A DNA stretch of 64,000 nt from Promineifilum sp. (lineage in GTDB: Bacteria > Chloroflexota > Anaerolineae > Promineifilales > Promineifilaceae), in the NCBI GenBank assembly GCA_018058545.1, contig JAGOZU010000002.1, positions 6,231 through 70,230 of the forward strand, given 5' to 3'. Below, in pieces: positions 29,489 through 37,627 of the stretch (the stretch's first letter is position 1; every line of letters starts with the position of its first letter). A model generated the notes under the pieces. It did no database searches. It saw only the letters and a list, made by a program, of their open reading frames with translations, and had not been told where the DNA came from. Both the position numbers and the translations under genes were made by a program.

Positions 29489-30037
29489 ATGATCGAGGTT
29501 ATAATCGACAGCATACGCGTCAGCCTGGTGTCCCAGCATCGGATTGTGCTCCTGCGCGAGATGGACAGCGACCGACAACTTCCCATTTGGATCGGGCCTT
29601 GTGAGGCGGACGCCATCACCATCGAATTGCAGGACGTCAAGGTGGCGCGTCCATTGACCCAGGATTTACTCAAGATCGTCATCACCGAATTGGGCGGCAC
29701 GCTCTCCCATGTGCTGATTAAGGAACTGAACGAGAGCGTCTTCCATGCTCGCCTGTTCATCAATATGGAGGACGAGGACGAGCCGCGCGAGATCGATTGC
29801 CGTCCGTCGGATGCCATCGCCCTGGCCGTGCGGGCCAAGGTGCCGATCTTCATCTCCGAGGAGGTCATGAATGTGGCCGGCGTGGAGCCGGAGCCGGATA
29901 TTCAGACAGCCGGAGATGAATCGGGCGAGGAACTGATCGATGCCGCCGACCTGGATGCCTTCAGTGACTTCCTTAACACACTGGATTTCGGCGACTTTGG
30001 CGGCGAACCGGACGAGCCGGGCGACGACCCGCTCTGA
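29489..30037 (+). CDS. Bifunctional nuclease family protein (DUF151/BFN)
   Basis: LPIWIGPCEADAI, RPLTQDL, DCRPSDAIALA; acidic tail. Confidence 0.9.
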   Translation: MIEVIIDSIRVSLVSQHRIVLLREMDSDRQLPIWIGPCEADAITIELQDVKVARPLTQDLLKIVITELGGTLSHVLIKELNESVFHARLFINMEDEDEPREIDCRPSDAIALAVRAKVPIFISEEVMNVAGVEPEPDIQTAGDESGEELIDAADLDAFSDFLNTLDFGDFGGEPDEPGDDPL

Positions 30038-30147: not shown

Positions 30148-31491
30148 ATGGATACGATAGAAGAACGCCTGCCCCCCCATAGCGTCGAGGCCGAGGAAGC
30201 CGTCCTGGGTTCCCTGATCATCGATCCCGATGCGATATTCGAGGTATCCGGTTTTCTGAAGCCGGAGGCCTTCTATCGCGCCCAAAACCGCTGGATCTAT
30301 GAATCGATCCTGGCCCTGAACGAGCGACGGGTCCCCCTCGACGTGGTTACGCTAATCGAGGAACTGCGCCGCCGCGAGCAACTGAACGAGATCGGCGGCG
30401 AGCCGACGGTGATCAACCTGCTGAACGCCGTGCCGACGTCGATCAACGTCGAGGCCTACGGCAGGATGGTGGACGCGGCCGGCATCCGGCGCAAGCTCCT
30501 CCTGGCGGCCGGGTCCATCGCCCGGCTGGCCTACGACGAGGCTGAGGATATCAACGTCGTACTCGATCGGTCGGAGCAGGCGCTATTCAGCATCAGCGAG
30601 CAGCGCACCGACCGCGCTCTGAAGCCGGTGAAGGAGATCGCCGGGGAGTATCTGGAGCGCATCGAGCTGTTGCGGGAGCGGGGCGACGAGTTTATCGGCA
30701 TTCCCACGGGCTTCATCGAACTGGACCGGATGCTGAGCGGCCTGAACAAATCCGATCTGATTATCATCGCCGCGCGGCCGGGTATGGGCAAGACGGCGCT
30801 GCAGAACGCGGTGGCCCTTCACGCGGCGCGACGCTACGACAAGCGGGTGGCCATGTTCAATCTGGAGATGAGCGGCGAGCAGCTGGTGCAGCGCATGATC
30901 GCCGCCGAGACGCGCATCGATTCCCAGCGCTTGCGGCGGGGTGATCTGGCCGATCATGAGTGGGCCATCTTCCTGGAGGCGCTCGGCCGTCTGAGCGAGT
31001 CGAAGATCTTCATCGATGATACCCCGTCGATCACCCCCATGCAGCTGCGGACGAAGTGCCGCCGGCTGTATGCCGAGCACGGGCTTGATTTGGTGATGAT
31101 CGACTACTTGCAGTTGATGCAGGCCGAGCATCCGACCAGCAATCGGGTGCAGGAAGTCAGCGAGATTTCGCGCGAGCTGAAGGGGTTGGCCCGCGAGCTG
31201 AATGTGCCGGTGGTGGCCGCGGCGCAGCTCAGTCGAGCGGTGGAGTCGCGGCAGAACAAGCGGCCGGTGTTGTCTGACCTGCGTGATTCGGGAAGTATCG
31301 AACAGGACGCCGACGTGGTCATGTTCATCTACCGCGATGATTACTATAATCCGGAGACATCGGAACGGCCGAATGTCGCCGAGGTCAACGTGGCCAAGCA
31401 TCGTAACGGCCCGACGGGGGCCATCGACCTGTTTTGGCACGGCCAGCTGGCGACCTTCCGTAATTTGCACCGGCAGGAAGTTGAACTATAA
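30148..31491 (+). CDS. dnaB: Replicative DNA helicase
   Basis: PPHSVEAEEAVLGS, ARPGMGKT, LEMS..QL, IDYLQL, QLSR, DLRDSGSIEQDAD, KHRNGP. Confidence 0.97.
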   Translation: MDTIEERLPPHSVEAEEAVLGSLIIDPDAIFEVSGFLKPEAFYRAQNRWIYESILALNERRVPLDVVTLIEELRRREQLNEIGGEPTVINLLNAVPTSINVEAYGRMVDAAGIRRKLLLAAGSIARLAYDEAEDINVVLDRSEQALFSISEQRTDRALKPVKEIAGEYLERIELLRERGDEFIGIPTGFIELDRMLSGLNKSDLIIIAARPGMGKTALQNAVALHAARRYDKRVAMFNLEMSGEQLVQRMIAAETRIDSQRLRRGDLADHEWAIFLEALGRLSESKIFIDDTPSITPMQLRTKCRRLYAEHGLDLVMIDYLQLMQAEHPTSNRVQEVSEISRELKGLARELNVPVVAAAQLSRAVESRQNKRPVLSDLRDSGSIEQDADVVMFIYRDDYYNPETSERPNVAEVNVAKHRNGPTGAIDLFWHGQLATFRNLHRQEVEL

Positions 31492-31516
31492 ATCGAATCG
31501 AGGTTCATAGGTTCTT

Positions 31517-31551
31517 CATTCGAAATTCGACATTCGTCATTCGTCATTGGG
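31517..31551. repeat. Heptamer tandem array between dnaB and dnaD
   Basis: cattcga aattcga cattcgt cattcgt cattggg. Confidence 0.85.
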
Positions 31552-31561
31552 AAGTCATGAT

Positions 31562-32290
31562 ATGTCCGGTTCACTAGCAATGCAGGGTTTTGCCGGCTTC
31601 CCCGATGGAAAGCAACGGCTCACGCTTGTCCCGAATCTGTTCTTCAGCGACCTGCTGCCCGCGATCGACAATCTGGCCGAACTGAAGGTGACGCTCTATG
31701 CCTTCTGGGCGTTGGGGCGGCGCGAGGGAGATCTGCGCTACCTGCGGTTGCCGGACTTCATGAACGATCCCGTTCTGCTGAAGGCGATGGGCGAGGCGAA
31801 CATCCAGTCGGGCGTCGAGATGCTGCTGGACGGCATCGAGCGCGCCGTGGCTCGCGGCACGTTTCTGCAGGTTACGATAGAGGGGGCCGGCGGGCAGATG
31901 GAGCTGTATTTCCTGAATACAGAGCGGGGCCGGGCGGCCGTCGAAGGCATCAGCCGTGGCGAGTGGCGGCCGTCGCCCGACGACGAGGAGCCGATCACCC
32001 TGCTGGTGGAGCGGCCCAATATATTCGTCCTTTATGAACAAAACATCGGCGCACTGACGCCGATGATCGCCGAAGAGCTGCGCGAGGCGGAGCAAACCTA
32101 CTCGCCCCAATGGATTGAGGAAGCCATCCGGCTGGCGGTCACCAACAACGTGCGTCGCTGGCGTTATGTCCAGAGCATTCTGGAGCGCTGGCGGCAGGAA
32201 GGAAAGCAAGATGCGCTCGGCCAACGAGATTCTCAACGGGACCTCAAACGGCAAGTCCCGCCCGAATATGACGACATCGTCAAACGCTAA
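31562..32290 (+). CDS. DnaD domain replication protein
   Basis: C-terminal NIFVLYEQNIGALTPMIAEEL...WIEEAIRLAV.NNVRRWRYVQSILERW, the DnaD/DnaB_2 YxxxILxxW motif. Start 31562 or 31580. Confidence 0.85.
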   Translation: MSGSLAMQGFAGFPDGKQRLTLVPNLFFSDLLPAIDNLAELKVTLYAFWALGRREGDLRYLRLPDFMNDPVLLKAMGEANIQSGVEMLLDGIERAVARGTFLQVTIEGAGGQMELYFLNTERGRAAVEGISRGEWRPSPDDEEPITLLVERPNIFVLYEQNIGALTPMIAEELREAEQTYSPQWIEEAIRLAVTNNVRRWRYVQSILERWRQEGKQDALGQRDSQRDLKRQVPPEYDDIVKR

Positions 32291-33674
32291 CCCCGATGGT
32301 GGCCGTCGGGACGACGGCGGCCATCGCAACGATGGCGACCATCGCAACGATGGCGACCATCGCAACGATGGCGGCATCGGCCGGCCGGACTGCCCCCACT
32401 GCGGCGGCCTGGGTTACGTCCTGCCCGCCGTGGGGCCGGATGACCCGGGCTTTGGTCGTGCCGTGGTCTGTGTCTGCCGCGCGGCCGATCTGGAGAGCAA
32501 GCGCCTCCGGGATGTCATTGGCGTCACCCAGGCGGGCATGCTGGAGGAGATGACTTTCGATAGCTTCATGACCGATCCCGGCGGTCTGACGGCGGCCGAA
32601 AAAAACAGTCTGAAGATGGCCCGACGCGAGGCCGAGGCCTTCGCCGAGAACCCGGCGGGCTGGTTGCTATTGCGTGGCGGCTACGGCTGCGGCAAGACCC
32701 ATTTGGCGGCGGCCGTCGCCAACTATCGCCTGCAACATGGTCAGGTGGTGCTCTTCCTGACCGCGCCCGATTTGCTCGACCATCTGCGGGCTACGTTCGG
32801 CCCCGATTCGGCCGTCAGCTATGACGATCGATTTGAACAGGTTCGCAACGCGCCGCTGCTTATCCTCGACGACTTTGGCGCACAGAGCAACACCGCCTGG
32901 GCCGACGAAAAATTCTATCAGATCATCAACCATCGCTATGTCCTGCGCCTGCCGACAGTCATCACCACCAATCTCGATGAAGAGGATTTCGAGCCACGTT
33001 TGCGCTCGCGCCTGGGGCATGTCGGCAATCAGGGCGTGGTGAAACTGGTGGAGATCAGCTCGCGCGATTTCCGTCACGGCACGCATCTGTCCGACCTGTC
33101 GACGCTGAATCTCCATGCCGACAAGACCTTCAATACGTTCGACCTTCGCGAGACCGAGCTGCCGAAGGCGCAGGCCGATAATCTGCGGCGAGCGCTGGAG
33201 CTGGCGGTGGCTTTTGCCGACCAGCCGGAAGGTTGGCTGGTGTTTAACAGTGTGGCCTATGCCAACGGCAAGACTCATCTGGCGGCGGCCATCGCCAACT
33301 ATGTGGCCGATGACGGCGAGCCGGTGCTGTTTGTGGTTGTGCCCGACCTGCTGGACTATCTGCGGGCGTCCTTCAGCCCCAGCAGCCAGAGCCGGCTGGA
33401 CAAGCGGTTCGATGAGGTGAAGCGCGCGCCGCTGCTGGTGCTGGACGATTTGGGCACGGAGAGCGCCACGGCCTGGGCGCGCGAGAAGCTCTACCAGCTC
33501 TTTAACTATCGCTATAACGCGCAACTGCCGACGGTGATCACCACGGCCGTGCCGATTGAGCAGATCGATCCGCGTCTGGCGTCACGGATGCTGGACGGCC
33601 GCCGCTGCACGTTCTTCGTACTGGAGGCCCCCAGCTATCGCGGAAAGGGCAAGCAAAAGCCAAGAAGACGATAG
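32211..33674 (+). CDS. DnaC/DnaI/IstB-like helicase-loader ATPase with Zn-binding N-terminus and two tandem AAA+ domains
   Basis: CPHCGG...CVC. Domain 1: GGYGCGKT, LILDDFG, ITTN. Domain 2: AYANGKT, LVLDDLG, ITT. Start placed at ATG 32211 (SD-like GGAAGG); 32268 is the alternative. Confidence 0.85.
   Translation: MRSANEILNGTSNGKSRPNMTTSSNANPDGGRRDDGGHRNDGDHRNDGDHRNDGGIGRPDCPHCGGLGYVLPAVGPDDPGFGRAVVCVCRAADLESKRLRDVIGVTQAGMLEEMTFDSFMTDPGGLTAAEKNSLKMARREAEAFAENPAGWLLLRGGYGCGKTHLAAAVANYRLQHGQVVLFLTAPDLLDHLRATFGPDSAVSYDDRFEQVRNAPLLILDDFGAQSNTAWADEKFYQIINHRYVLRLPTVITTNLDEEDFEPRLRSRLGHVGNQGVVKLVEISSRDFRHGTHLSDLSTLNLHADKTFNTFDLRETELPKAQADNLRRALELAVAFADQPEGWLVFNSVAYANGKTHLAAAIANYVADDGEPVLFVVVPDLLDYLRASFSPSSQSRLDKRFDEVKRAPLLVLDDLGTESATAWAREKLYQLFNYRYNAQLPTVITTAVPIEQIDPRLASRMLDGRRCTFFVLEAPSYRGKGKQKPRRR
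32311..32379. repeat. 18-bp minisatellite (~3.8 copies) in the dnaC-like 5' region
   Basis: acgacggcggccatcgca acgatggcgaccatcgca acgatggcgaccatcgca acgatggcggcatcg. Confidence 0.92.
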
Positions 33675-33686
33675 AGGCGCGCTCCC

Positions 33687-33721
33687 CATTCGTCATTCGT
33701 CATTCGTAATTCGTAATTTCC
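33687..33721. repeat. Heptamer tandem array after the dnaC-like gene
   Basis: cattcgt cattcgt cattcgt aattcgt aatttcc. Confidence 0.9.
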
Positions 33722-35494
33722 CTAGTGTGACAGGATAACCCAGGTCGGCCCGCGCATTTCCAGCACCAGACTGGTCAGCCGGTTCTGCGGGGGTTGGGTA
33801 GCGACGGCCTGGGCTTTGTCGCCCATCAGATCGACCTGTTGCAGCACATAGCCGTATTCGGCCGCCGCCCGCACGATCCCCAAATAGCTCGTGGCCATCG
33901 GGTCGATGATCGCGCCGTTGTTGTCGAGAATATTGGCGACGCTGTCGAGAATGACGTTGGCCTTGTCGTAGCGGCCCTGTCGCAGGGCGGCGTCGGCCGC
34001 GGCCAGCATCACTTCCAGCATGATGTTGATCTCTTCCTCCGGTCGCCGCGTCAGGTCGGCCGGGTTGCCGAACTCGCGCACTTGCGTCGGATGGGGCAGC
34101 CAGGCGCTCAGGTAGTGGGCCGTCGGGTCGTACATCTCCTGATAGCGCCGAGCCACATTGTAGTAGCGGATCGTCGTCCGCAAGTCCTCCACCACGGCCG
34201 GATCGGGCGGGGCGCTTTGCAGCATGTTCAGCCATTCGGCCTCGAGTTGGGCTAGCGATGCCCCGTAGTAATGCTGCAGGTTGACATCGACGGCATCGGC
34301 CAATGTAGGTCCGTCTCCGGCCGAGATGTCGCTGTAGAACTCCCTGAAGGTGTTCCAGCCGGATCGGTCGATGAGATAGGTGATGAACCCCGCCGCCTCC
34401 AGATAGCCGATCTCGTGCTGGATGGGGTAGAAGTCGTTGATGAGCGTGGCCAGCGGCACATATTGGTTCAAGGCCACCAGCGCGGCCGAACGTTTGGTCA
34501 GGTCTTCCGGCTTGTAATGGCCGCCACTGACCCACACCGCCAGCCCTTCGGCCAAAAACGACAGACGGCGCGGGGCAAACTGCTGGTCGAGGATGTGGGT
34601 GGCCTCATGGACGAGCAGTTCATAGATGCCGCCGCCCGCATAGCGTCGGTCGACGTAGGAGACGACGATGTCCGTGCCGGCAAAACCGCCCTGGCCCACG
34701 ACGCGGTCGATGAAGTAGACGTGGAGCTTCTGGCTGGGCTGCACCGAGAGCCGGTTGGCCGCCTGCTGCACGGCCGACTCCAGCAGCGGAGCCAGCGACG
34801 GCAGATCGCGGGCCGCGGCCGTGTCGCTGACGACGTGGATGAAGCAGCAGTCGATCTCCCTGGTCTGCCAGCCGGCGGCGGCGTCGCGGGCCGCCTGTCC
34901 GGTGGGGATGTTCACCGTGGCGGTGATGACGGTGGCGTTGTTGGCCGGGTCGTCGTCACCGGCCTGGATGGTGTCGAACGGATCGAGGACGACCTCGATG
35001 CGATAGTCGCCCGACAGGCCGGTGGTGTCCCAGGCCCATTCATAGATGCCTTCGGCCTGGCCGTTCCAGTTGCGGCGATCGAGCGGCCCGCCGGCCACTT
35101 GCACCCCGTCGACTAGGATGGTGGCGGTCACGTCGCTGACCTGGACGCCCGCGGGCACGAACGGCAGGAGCTGGAAGGTTACTTTGTCCCCGGCGTAGAT
35201 GACGGGCACGGGGTACAGGACGACGTCGGTATGATTCAGCGACAGGTCGGCGGCATCCGTTGGGTCGGGCGGAATCGTCGGCAAGGATTCCGGACTGGGT
35301 GGCGGAGGCTGGGTATCGGTGGGCAGGGCGGGCACGGTGGCCGGGTCGGTGGGGGGAACGGCCTCGGCCGCCGGGAGGACGGAAACGGGGACGGCCGTCG
35401 CGACGGCGGGGGGAGAAGTCGCGGCGGTCGAGCCGTTGCAAGCAACCAGCCCCAAGGTGATCATGGCCAGGACGACGAGCGTGATCCGGTGCAT
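33722..35494 (-). CDS. Lipoprotein with Pro/Thr linker, CARDB-like domain and zincin (peptidase MA-like) domain
   Basis: Lipobox LVAC; VVLDPFDTI..GDDDPANN; HEATH plus downstream LAEGLA. Confidence 0.7.
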   Translation of the reverse strand: MHRITLVVLAMITLGLVACNGSTAATSPPAVATAVPVSVLPAAEAVPPTDPATVPALPTDTQPPPPSPESLPTIPPDPTDAADLSLNHTDVVLYPVPVIYAGDKVTFQLLPFVPAGVQVSDVTATILVDGVQVAGGPLDRRNWNGQAEGIYEWAWDTTGLSGDYRIEVVLDPFDTIQAGDDDPANNATVITATVNIPTGQAARDAAAGWQTREIDCCFIHVVSDTAAARDLPSLAPLLESAVQQAANRLSVQPSQKLHVYFIDRVVGQGGFAGTDIVVSYVDRRYAGGGIYELLVHEATHILDQQFAPRRLSFLAEGLAVWVSGGHYKPEDLTKRSAALVALNQYVPLATLINDFYPIQHEIGYLEAAGFITYLIDRSGWNTFREFYSDISAGDGPTLADAVDVNLQHYYGASLAQLEAEWLNMLQSAPPDPAVVEDLRTTIRYYNVARRYQEMYDPTAHYLSAWLPHPTQVREFGNPADLTRRPEEEINIMLEVMLAAADAALRQGRYDKANVILDSVANILDNNGAIIDPMATSYLGIVRAAAEYGYVLQQVDLMGDKAQAVATQPPQNRLTSLVLEMRGPTWVILSH

Positions 35495-35752
35495 CGCGCT
35501 CGATGGTAACTGGTTGTTGTCGGTACTACTCAACGGCAATCAGTTCCTTACTCAACCCTCAATATTCTATACGCCAACGATCGGCCGCCGTTGCAGGGGA
35601 ATGGGATGTTCACTGTTTATTAAGCAACAGGAGGTTGCTTGTCTTTACCCAAACCGGCCAAACTGGCGTATAATCACCACGCTTGCATATATAACACTTG
35701 TTGCGCCCAAAAAGTACGCTCAACAACAAAATAGTCAGGAGACCTTTGAACC

Positions 35753-37088: not shown

Positions 37089-37433
37089 TTAATTGGGCAT
37101 GTTGCGCCGCAGAGATTCGATTGTCACAGTCAAAATTGCTTTGAATGTGTCGTTATCCAGTATGGCGACACGGCGGACAATCAGATCGATATTGGCCGTA
37201 AACAGTTTCATGGGACGCGCAAAACTATCGACGTTCAATGAACCTTCTTTCAAGTTAGCATTCGTCAATCGTACAACAGTTAGATCGATGGGCGCTCGAC
37301 TTGTAATTTGACACAAGAGCCAATCATCTTGCCCCGTGGCAGCCAAGACAACGGCCGGCCGGAGTTTTGTGGCCGACAAATCAGAGAACGGAAACGGTAT
37401 CACAACGATGGAAGCTGGACCAAGTGTGACCAT
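37089..37433 (-). CDS. PemK/MazF family toxin
   Basis: VVIPFPFSDLSATKLRPAVV...LCQITS...SFARPMKLFT. Confidence 0.88.
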   Translation of the reverse strand: MVTLGPASIVVIPFPFSDLSATKLRPAVVLAATGQDDWLLCQITSRAPIDLTVVRLTNANLKEGSLNVDSFARPMKLFTANIDLIVRRVAILDNDTFKAILTVTIESLRRNMPN

Positions 37434-37627
37434 GCTTCATCCTCCTCGGGCAGATCCCAGTCCCGTGCCAGGGCCGGTTCGCTCAATAGAGTAAAATAGT
37501 GGGCTTCATCTTCCGGTTCTTCATCCAGAATTGTAATGAGTACCCGGCGTGATTTGGAGAACTTGACCTGATCAAGCAGCCGGAGTTTACCATCCGGATC
37601 AATGATGCCTTCGAAAGTTTGCAACAT
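37400..37627 (-). CDS. Putative antitoxin
   Basis: 75 aa, overlaps the toxin start, acidic tail LLSEPALARDWDLPEEDEAW; SD CAGGAG upstream. Confidence 0.75.
   Translation of the reverse strand: MLQTFEGIIDPDGKLRLLDQVKFSKSRRVLITILDEEPEDEAHYFTLLSEPALARDWDLPEEDEAWSHLVQLPSL

Follow-up and report, generated by a model that had tools for sequence, protein, structure and literature searches.

A helicase loader with two AAA+ modules in a single chain at the dnaB-dnaD locus of a Chloroflexota genome

The dnaB-dnaD-loader locus

The subject of this analysis is a replication gene cluster in a 64,000-nucleotide stretch of DNA (the window) from Promineifilum sp., a member of the class Anaerolineae in the phylum Chloroflexota. 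The window comprises positions 6231-70230 of contig JAGOZU010000002.1 in a 3.6 Mb, 185-contig metagenome assembly (GCA_018058545.1) that is 97.9% complete. Three co-directional open reading frames (ORFs) on the + strand, at 30148-33674 of the window, encode the replicative helicase DnaB, a DnaD-like protein and a helicase loader with two AAA+ modules in one chain. A first-pass annotation, made from the letters alone, had proposed this gene order; family models confirm it (TIGR00665 for the helicase, PF07261 and TIGR01446 for the DnaD-like protein, PF01695 and NF005992 for the loader).

The dnaB gene (30148-31491, + strand) encodes 447 amino acids. Its product contains both the N-terminal DnaB domain (PF00772) and the RecA-type C-terminal domain (PF03796, DnaB_C), and it scores above the equivalog cut-offs of TIGR00665 (558.7 bits; cut-off 385.25) and NF004384 (539.9 bits; cut-off 525). 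A whole-genome search with PF03796 returns this gene and one partial match of 28.9 bits on contig C87; dnaB of the window is the only replicative helicase gene in the genome.

The DnaD-like gene occupies 31547-32290 on the + strand. Its start is likely to be the ATG at 31580, because the family consensus N-terminus is 'MxxFxGFPxGK'. The DnaD domain lies at residues 162-219 and is recognised by both PF07261 (42.9 bits, cut-off 22; E 3.9e-11) and TIGR01446 (47.5 bits, cut-off 24.95); the protein also matches PDB entry 2zc2 by sequence (E 7.8e-6). In an AlphaFold2 (AF2) model with a predicted local distance difference test score (pLDDT) of 85.7, this C-terminal domain is preceded by a helix/beta-hairpin N-domain that is winged-helix-like. 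The top PDB fold match of the model is full-length DnaD (9a5c_B, E 3.5e-5). The N-domain of Bacillus subtilis DnaD (2v79) is matched with probability 0.85 and a target-side TM-score (TMt) of 0.47; many PadR and MarR winged helices score similarly. A DnaD-domain search of the genome gives this gene as its single match.

The loader gene follows at 32211-33674 (+ strand) and encodes 487 amino acids. The mechanical ORF begins at a TTG at 32115; the start is most likely the ATG at 32211, because the sequence GGAAGGAAAG lies 4 nt upstream of it and the resulting N-terminus, MRSANEIL, fits the 'M..L.EIL' motif of homologues which are just 32-47% identical. The first 80 nt of the loader gene (32211-32290) then lie, in another frame, within the 3' end of dnaD. 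The corresponding overlap is 44 nt long in the related locus L024 and again 80 nt in L021 (4908-4987), which comes from a complete 1.75-Mb genome of another class; the identical length in this distant locus suggests conserved translational coupling together with a dual-coding constraint.

Loader residues are numbered here from the Met codon at 32268; 19 is added to obtain positions in the 487-residue protein. Residues 1-34 are predicted to be disordered (pLDDT <50). An 18-nt in-frame tandem repeat coding for (HRNDGD)x3 lies in this disordered N-terminus (32311-32373, + strand; Tandem Repeats Finder (TRF) period 18, 3.5 copies, 95% matches). It looks like a recent coding-repeat expansion, since it is missing from aligned homologues such as P0010 (72% identical) and P0052. 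A Cys4 motif (CPHC...CVC; 32391-32477, + strand), present once per chain, lies downstream; it is presumed to form a zinc-binding, helicase-interacting domain. Its ligands C42, C45, C68 and C70 are invariant or nearly so across the loader family, and the region is modelled, with a pLDDT above 90, as a beta hairpin leading into a long helix.

Two AAA+ modules in one loader chain

The loader matches PF01695 (IstB/DnaC) in two stretches with an E-value of 2.4e-32 and scores 224.8 bits with NF005992, for which the cut-off is 189. Module 1 covers residues ~92-270 (32541-33077, + strand) and module 2 covers residues ~286-460 (33123-33647, + strand). The two are 51% identical over 155 residues (E 1e-52), which is far beyond chance. 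Each module opens with its own 'L..L...TF..F' lead-in, a family consensus. In a sample of 195 tandem proteins, the hidden Markov model envelopes of module 1 and module 2 adjoin, with a median of 5 residues between them.

Module 1 carries all five motifs of the DnaC ATPase: Walker A (GGYGCGKT, K143), Walker B (LLILDD, D201/D202), sensor I (TTN, N235), box VII (R244-L-R-S-R248, with R248 as the arginine finger) and sensor II (DFR, R269). Module 2 keeps K335, D393/D394 in the Walker B motif LLVLDD, R440 in the box VII motif R436-L-A-S-R440, and R458 in the sensor II motif SYR. Its sensor I is TTA, with Ala427 in place of asparagine, and its P-loop is altered to SVAYANGKT, in which the first glycine is lost and one residue is inserted. 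The first-pass annotation had described two complete AAA+ domains; the count of two stands, while 'complete' does not apply to module 2 because of Ala427 and the altered P-loop.

In E. coli DnaC, residues K112, E170, N203, R220 and R237 are required and R216 is a coupling residue; ATPase activity is abolished by N203A, a substitution of the sensor I asparagine (PMC8213410). A patch of K143, F146, S177 and Y179 in DnaC contacts single-stranded DNA (ssDNA; PMC8213410). Alignment to 6qel_G places the corresponding patch of module 1 at R174/F177/T209/W211, and alignment of module 1 to module 2 places the second patch at R366/F369/T401/W403. R174, R366 and W403 are invariant in an alignment of 108 sequences; conservation of W211 and F369 is 90% or more. 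In sequence, both modules keep what DnaC needs for ATP binding, for completing the neighbouring site and for gripping ssDNA.

The motifs were also counted in 95 diverse tandem proteins, each the representative of a 50%-identity cluster. The Walker A lysine is present in module 1 of 93 and in module 2 of 94, the first Walker B aspartate in 95 and 91, and the arginine finger in 88 and 89, respectively. The sensor I asparagine is found in module 1 of 51 representatives and in module 2 of 12. Close homologues have SV[AG][YF]GNGKT as the P-loop of module 2 and 90 of the 95 representatives have a normal GxxGxGKT; by this comparison the odd P-loop is a feature of this organism's clade. Mean pairwise identity between orthologues is 44% for module 1 and 41% for module 2. 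The idea that module 2 is a decaying domain was rejected because it is conserved between orthologues as much as module 1.

The AF2 model of the loader has a mean pLDDT of 89.0 and a predicted TM-score (pTM) of 0.76. In a fold search, module 1 matches DnaC (3ec2/3ecc), DnaI (2w58) and the E. coli DnaBC complex (6qem_G). Fold matches to single modules include Aquifex DnaC (3ec2/3ecc, TMt 0.76-0.79), DnaI (2w58, 5he8) and IstB (5bq5, 8q3w). Module 2 matches DnaI 2w58 with E 2.7e-14, and its alignment with IstB 5bq5 spans 178 residues. No chain in the PDB fold search covers both loader modules at once. The loader belongs to the DnaC/DnaI family by sequence, fold and genomic role, and differs from every characterised member in having two modules per chain. 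The structures and literature compared agree with the earlier statement that characterised loaders have one AAA+ module or none.

A probable resident loader and its distribution in Chloroflexota

The tandem protein is probably the cell's own and only helicase loader. A profile search finds no DciA in the genome (best E 0.19, below the cut-off); control genomes gave the expected results in this search. A lambda-P homologue was not found in the genome, and a genome search for IstB/DnaC-type genes returns none beyond the two halves of the loader. The remaining matches of this type are one in a 490-aa frame on contig C72, which is probably dnaA, and one that is sub-threshold.

Gene order around the loader was compared in 18 loci of relatives from other families of the phylum, some of them in single-contig genomes of 1.5-5.8 Mb. 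The order dnaB-dnaD-loader is found in 16 of the 18. The other two, L035 and L037, both have one-module loaders and show no dnaB match inside the locus stretch examined. In a second sample of 80 named loci, dnaD lies upstream of the loader in 78 and dnaB in 72; contig ends limit the rest. A gene with a bifunctional nuclease domain (29489-30037, + strand; PF02577, E 3.6e-38) lies directly upstream of dnaB in the window. Since it recurs upstream of dnaB in relatives (7/18 loci, among them L024-L027, L033 and L034, and 55/80 named loci), it may be part of the same conserved cluster. The order nuclease-dnaB-dnaD-loader is found in both Anaerolineae and Dehalococcoidia.

These observations bear on the possibility that the locus is a domesticated or resident mobile module, either the replication genes of a prophage or the IstB helper of an IS21 element, which is dispensable for chromosome replication. 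In its favour, the best PHROG matches of the locus are phage DnaC-like and DnaD-like loader families. In addition, the dna[CI] genes of bacteria, those of Chloroflexi among them, are regarded as domesticated phage genes (Brezellec et al. 2016); this bears on an ancient origin only. Against it, the locus is flanked by housekeeping genes (a Mur ligase (MurE), the bifunctional nuclease and an isocitrate dehydrogenase-like ORF, the last named by eye), GC content is even across the region at 0.62, like its surroundings, and no phage or transposase gene is found among the loader's neighbours. Its adjoining genes are dnaD and a 605-aa ORF on the opposite strand, without an IstA neighbour; the loader scores 138.6 bits with the IS21 IstB model NF038214, below the cut-off of 200. 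Gene order is kept across two classes and the genome holds no second loader of a known type. A prophage or IS21 origin, which the first-pass annotation had named as the result that would overturn its reading, was rejected on these grounds and is very improbable.

The distribution of the loader, and of DciA, was determined in 401 Chloroflexota genomes, of which 47 are from the window's own class. The loader is matched in 310 genomes. The match is continuous over both modules in 75, and more genomes have it in split form; in further genomes the module 1 match lies inside an open frame of 449-592 aa, and the two that were checked (G258, G043) have two modules. Among the named carriers are Anaerolinea thermophila, Longilinea, Leptolinea, Caldilineaceae, Thermoflexus, Ardenticatenaceae and many Dehalococcoidia. 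The loader gene has its closest named relatives in metagenome-assembled genomes of Ardenticatenia, Ardenticatenaceae and Promineifilaceae, all Chloroflexota. An all-against-library search gives 634 representatives at E <=1e-30; among the best 150, 94 are 400-520 aa long.

DciA is above its cut-off in 119 of the 401 genomes and in none of the 47 from the window's own class, in agreement with the absence that the first-pass annotation had proposed to look for. None of the 119 has a loader match better than 7.7e-11; the weak matches in these genomes are taken to be other AAA+ proteins such as DnaA. The published view is of one replacement of dciA by dna[CI] in Chloroflexi (Brezellec et al. 2016); the pattern of loader and DciA across the 401 genomes agrees with it.

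A resident dna[CI] gene in Chloroflexi is already published. The supplement of Brezellec et al. 2016 lists E8N2B4_ANATU and Q3Z917_DEHE1 as Chloroflexi dna[CI] proteins. The available part of that paper gives one dna[CI] gene and no dciA for its Chloroflexi entries and treats the Chloroflexi genes as the outcome of a single dna[CI] domestication; no mention of a tandem or duplicated loader was found in this part. The tandem architecture is apparently undescribed: no description of a tandem-AAA+ DnaC/DnaI loader was found in the open full-text literature, with subscription-only papers lying outside the search. In databases, the tandem proteins carry no annotation beyond 'ATP-binding protein' or 'DNA replication protein DnaC'.

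One-module loaders of ~270-350 aa occur in other Chloroflexota families, directly after dnaD, and in L036 and L038 also after dnaB. In an unrooted tree built from 155 single modules, sequences labelled module 1 and those labelled module 2 cluster strongly by label (none of 500 shuffles is as low). On the module 1 side of this tree, a single clade holds the four verified one-module loaders. When module 2 is held as one clade in a cleaned set of 108 rows, also unrooted, the constrained tree is 18 log-likelihood units better than the free search, with an approximately unbiased test probability (p-AU) of 0.73. Since a single module 2 clade is not rejected, one duplication before the split between Anaerolineae and Dehalococcoidia would be the simplest history. 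One-module lineages may be primitive or may have lost module 2 secondarily; both fit the unrooted tree.

Longer forms also exist. Locus L119 (1433-6484 of a 64-kb contig, Logan DRR538840) contains an intein-bearing dnaB, a dnaD and then a loader (P0121) of 827 aa with one Cys4 domain and four distinct AAA+ modules. P0122 (792 aa) has three modules, of which two are near-identical. Near-identical repeated modules together with frame-shifted tails are seen in both P0122 and P0140 (564 aa); these are either very recent module duplications or assembly errors induced by repeats.

One alternative is that the two-module ORF is itself an artefact of assembly or fusion, in which a sequencing error has joined two adjacent loader genes. 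In its favour, the genome was assembled from a metagenome and is in 185 contigs, and the few relatives with near-identical modules (P0122, P0140) do resemble assembly problems. On the other side, the uninterrupted tandem form is present in hundreds of independent assemblies, some of them single-contig genomes. Repeat collapse is not an issue because the modules are just 51% identical; moreover, the chain has one N-domain, and no start or stop signal lies between the modules. An artefact was rejected on these comparative data, and its probability is negligible.

Other features lie near the locus. The 605-aa ORF (33722-35539, - strand) is convergent with the loader and adjoins its 3' end. No Pfam family is matched by it at E 0.01, and its N-terminus resembles a signal peptide or transmembrane segment and is followed by a Pro/Thr-rich linker. 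Further along, two small overlapping ORFs of 114 aa and 75 aa (37089-37627, - strand) have, by eye, the look of a MazF/PemK-type toxin-antitoxin pair and sit in a stretch of lower GC (0.52-0.55).

Heptamer tandem repeats lie on both sides of the dnaD-loader pair. The first array, [C/A]ATTCG[T/A], is in the dnaB-dnaD spacer (31512-31548, + strand; TRF period 7, 5.3 copies); the second, CATTCGT, is 3' of the loader stop codon (33687-33718, + strand; TRF period 7, 4.6 copies, 96% matches). A role as a local regulatory or origin feature was rejected: the same type of array occurs across the whole genome, with 246 overlapping matches of a 19-nt pattern versus 0 for the reversed control, and arrays of more than 100 bp are found elsewhere (e.g. 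C49:11619-11749, C67:7082-7191 and C69:16680-16796). The heptamers are thus a genome-wide repeat family and not specific to the locus; they resemble the STRR heptamer repeats of cyanobacteria.

Proposed loading mechanism and comparison with known systems

The number of loader protomers and ATP sites needed to open and close the DnaB ring is still debated, and known loader complexes differ: DnaC is present in a 6:6 ratio, DnaI as three dimers and DciA in three copies. In the genome described here, DnaB, the DnaD-like adaptor and the tandem loader probably form a resident loading set in which the AAA+ spiral is assembled from pre-joined module pairs, with about three chains per helicase hexamer. 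The DnaD-like protein would recruit the system to the origin opened by DnaA, and the Cys4 domain would dock on the C-terminal tier of DnaB. With ATP, the AAA+ modules would form a DnaC-like spiral which holds DnaB open and binds ssDNA. Both modules are likely to take part in this spiral because both keep the Walker A lysine, the Walker B aspartate, the arginine finger and the four ssDNA-contact positions.

Each chain would then occupy two adjacent positions, so that the spiral needs fewer chains than modules. The likeliest arrangement would be three chains per DnaB hexamer, providing six AAA+ positions and only three helicase-binding domains. ATP sites would alternate along such a spiral: module 1, which is usually complete, may act as the hydrolytic trigger for release, while module 2 may serve chiefly to bind ATP and DNA and to keep the assembly together, as it is usually without the sensor I asparagine that the DnaC ATPase needs. 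There are precedents for a threefold geometry of loaders. DnaI sits on one DnaB ring as three dimers in which the protomers are non-equivalent (PMC3791466), and a DnaB6-DciA3 complex is described in the available part of PMC13696075.

Four observations weigh against this scheme. Firstly, sequence comparison links the N-domain of the loader neither to DnaI-N nor to the N-domain of DnaC, and helicase binding by this domain is for that reason assumed. Secondly, a four-module orthologue occupies the same dnaB-dnaD-loader position in L119; because four does not divide six, a strict three-chain rule cannot hold family-wide. Thirdly, the sensor I asparagine is missing from module 1 as well in 44 of the 95 representatives, so the assignment of catalytic and structural roles to the modules is not uniform. 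Finally, module 2 is the better conserved module in this clade (76% identity to L040 versus 60% for module 1), which fits poorly with a merely passive role.

Loading may instead follow the DnaC pattern, with six chains per DnaB hexamer. Module 1 would then form the spiral, and module 2 would add a tier, extend the filament along ssDNA or contact DnaD or DnaA; the duplication would have added a function and not reduced the number of chains. AAA+ proteins of the DnaC/DnaA type form open-ended helical assemblies. The loader modules belong to this filament-forming clade, with 3ecc and 2hcb among the fold matches, and the occurrence of one, two or four modules in orthologous positions fits an extendable filament better than a fixed hexamer. 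Module 1 may have kept the ancestral role, since it is the module with which one-module loaders group. Three points speak against a six-chain arrangement. The arginine finger and ssDNA patch are kept in module 2 as in module 1, as is expected of equivalent positions. The modules abut almost without a linker, which makes two independent rings sterically awkward. Lastly, none of the two-tier chains (p97, NVL, Cdc48) can be superposed on the two modules together: the top alignments over the whole chain have a query-side TM-score (TMq) of 0.26-0.34 with a root-mean-square deviation (rmsd) of 13-19 Å, and a type II two-ring arrangement is not supported. Six chains per hexamer are therefore considered unlikely.

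A further alternative concerns module 2 alone. It may be a regulatory pseudo-ATPase which covers the oligomerisation face of module 1, as an auto-inhibitor or built-in partner, until DnaB, DnaD or ssDNA releases it, and which thereby tunes the timing of loading without joining the spiral. Module 2 is without the sensor I asparagine in 83 of the 95 representatives, and in this clade its P-loop has a one-residue insertion and has lost the first glycine. Control of loader activity through the AAA+ oligomerisation face is described in the available part of PMC4887207. Nevertheless, the Walker A lysine, Walker B aspartate, arginine finger and DNA-contact residues of module 2 are conserved like those of module 1, and a retained DNA patch is unexpected in a pure pseudo-enzyme. 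A purely regulatory module 2 is thus distinctly improbable.

Assembly from pre-joined pairs may extend beyond this organism. It is tentatively proposed, with somewhat less than even confidence, that Chloroflexota use naturally concatenated loader protomers, with two modules (one or four in some lineages) following one helicase-binding domain. Occupation of a subset of the six docking sites on DnaB would then suffice, and the ATP sites within chains and between chains would be divided into hydrolytic and holding sites. An uncharacterised loading mode, as the first-pass annotation suggested, is a reasonable hypothesis; what the sequences display directly is an unusual and conserved architecture.

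Covalently joined, non-identical modules with a single helicase-binding domain fix the order of subunits. This would allow each ATP site, arginine finger and DNA patch to be mutated separately by position, which the homo-oligomeric nature of DnaC makes difficult. If the protomers are indeed concatenated, the family is a natural 'linked-subunit' experiment in the initiator/loader clade of AAA+ proteins. It also gives a large phylum an initiation set-up outside that of the model organisms, with a DnaD-like protein and a tandem loader and without DciA. This phylum includes the Dehalococcoidia used in bioremediation and the Anaerolineae that are abundant in sludge and sediments.

Several known systems share part of this architecture. 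IstB of IS21 (5BQ5, 8Q3W) has PF01695 in common with the loader, and module 2 aligns over the whole AAA+ domain of IstB. Unlike IstB, the loader has no IstA neighbour and lies in a dnaB-dnaD context; no IS ends were seen, and no dedicated search for them was made. Type II AAA+ proteins (p97/Cdc48/NVL) also have two modules per chain; in many of them one site hydrolyses ATP and the other is chiefly structural. They belong to another AAA+ clade and result from an independent duplication; in contrast to theirs, the modules here are without a full lid domain. The one-module loaders of Chloroflexota occupy the same position after dnaD, have the same Cys4 N-domain region and are ~50% identical to module 1; they differ in having no second module.

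DnaC of E. coli (6QEL/6QEM) and of Aquifex aeolicus (3EC2/3ECC) belongs to the same AAA+ loader clade, with module fold matches at TMt 0.58-0.79 and phmmer E-values of 9.6e-16 for module 1 and 1.7e-11 for module 2. The Walker A and B motifs, the RLxSR box VII with its arginine finger, sensor II and the ssDNA-contact tetrad are all recognisable in the loader. As with DnaC, it is a resident single loader in a genome without DciA. It differs from DnaC in having two AAA+ modules and one N-terminal domain per chain, and in the nature of that domain, which is Cys4 in place of the helical domain of DnaC. In addition, the loader is encoded alongside a DnaD-like partner, and its module 2 is mostly without the sensor I asparagine.

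The Bacillus and Geobacillus DnaI-DnaD-DnaB(Bsu) system was compared through structures 4M4W, 2W58, 2K7R, 2V79 and 8OJJ. The Promineifilum locus differs from it in several respects. Firstly, the AAA+ pair is covalent. Secondly, the ligands are CxxC...CxC, in contrast to Cys67/Cys70/His84/Cys101 of DnaI. Thirdly, there is a single DnaD-domain gene and no second co-loader of the DnaB(Bsu) type, and the genes lie directly after dnaB. As in DnaI, a cysteine-rich N-domain precedes the AAA+ part; that of DnaI binds zinc and is needed for helicase binding. Both systems have a partner of the DnaD family, and the three-dimer geometry of DnaI is what a covalent pair of modules would hard-wire.

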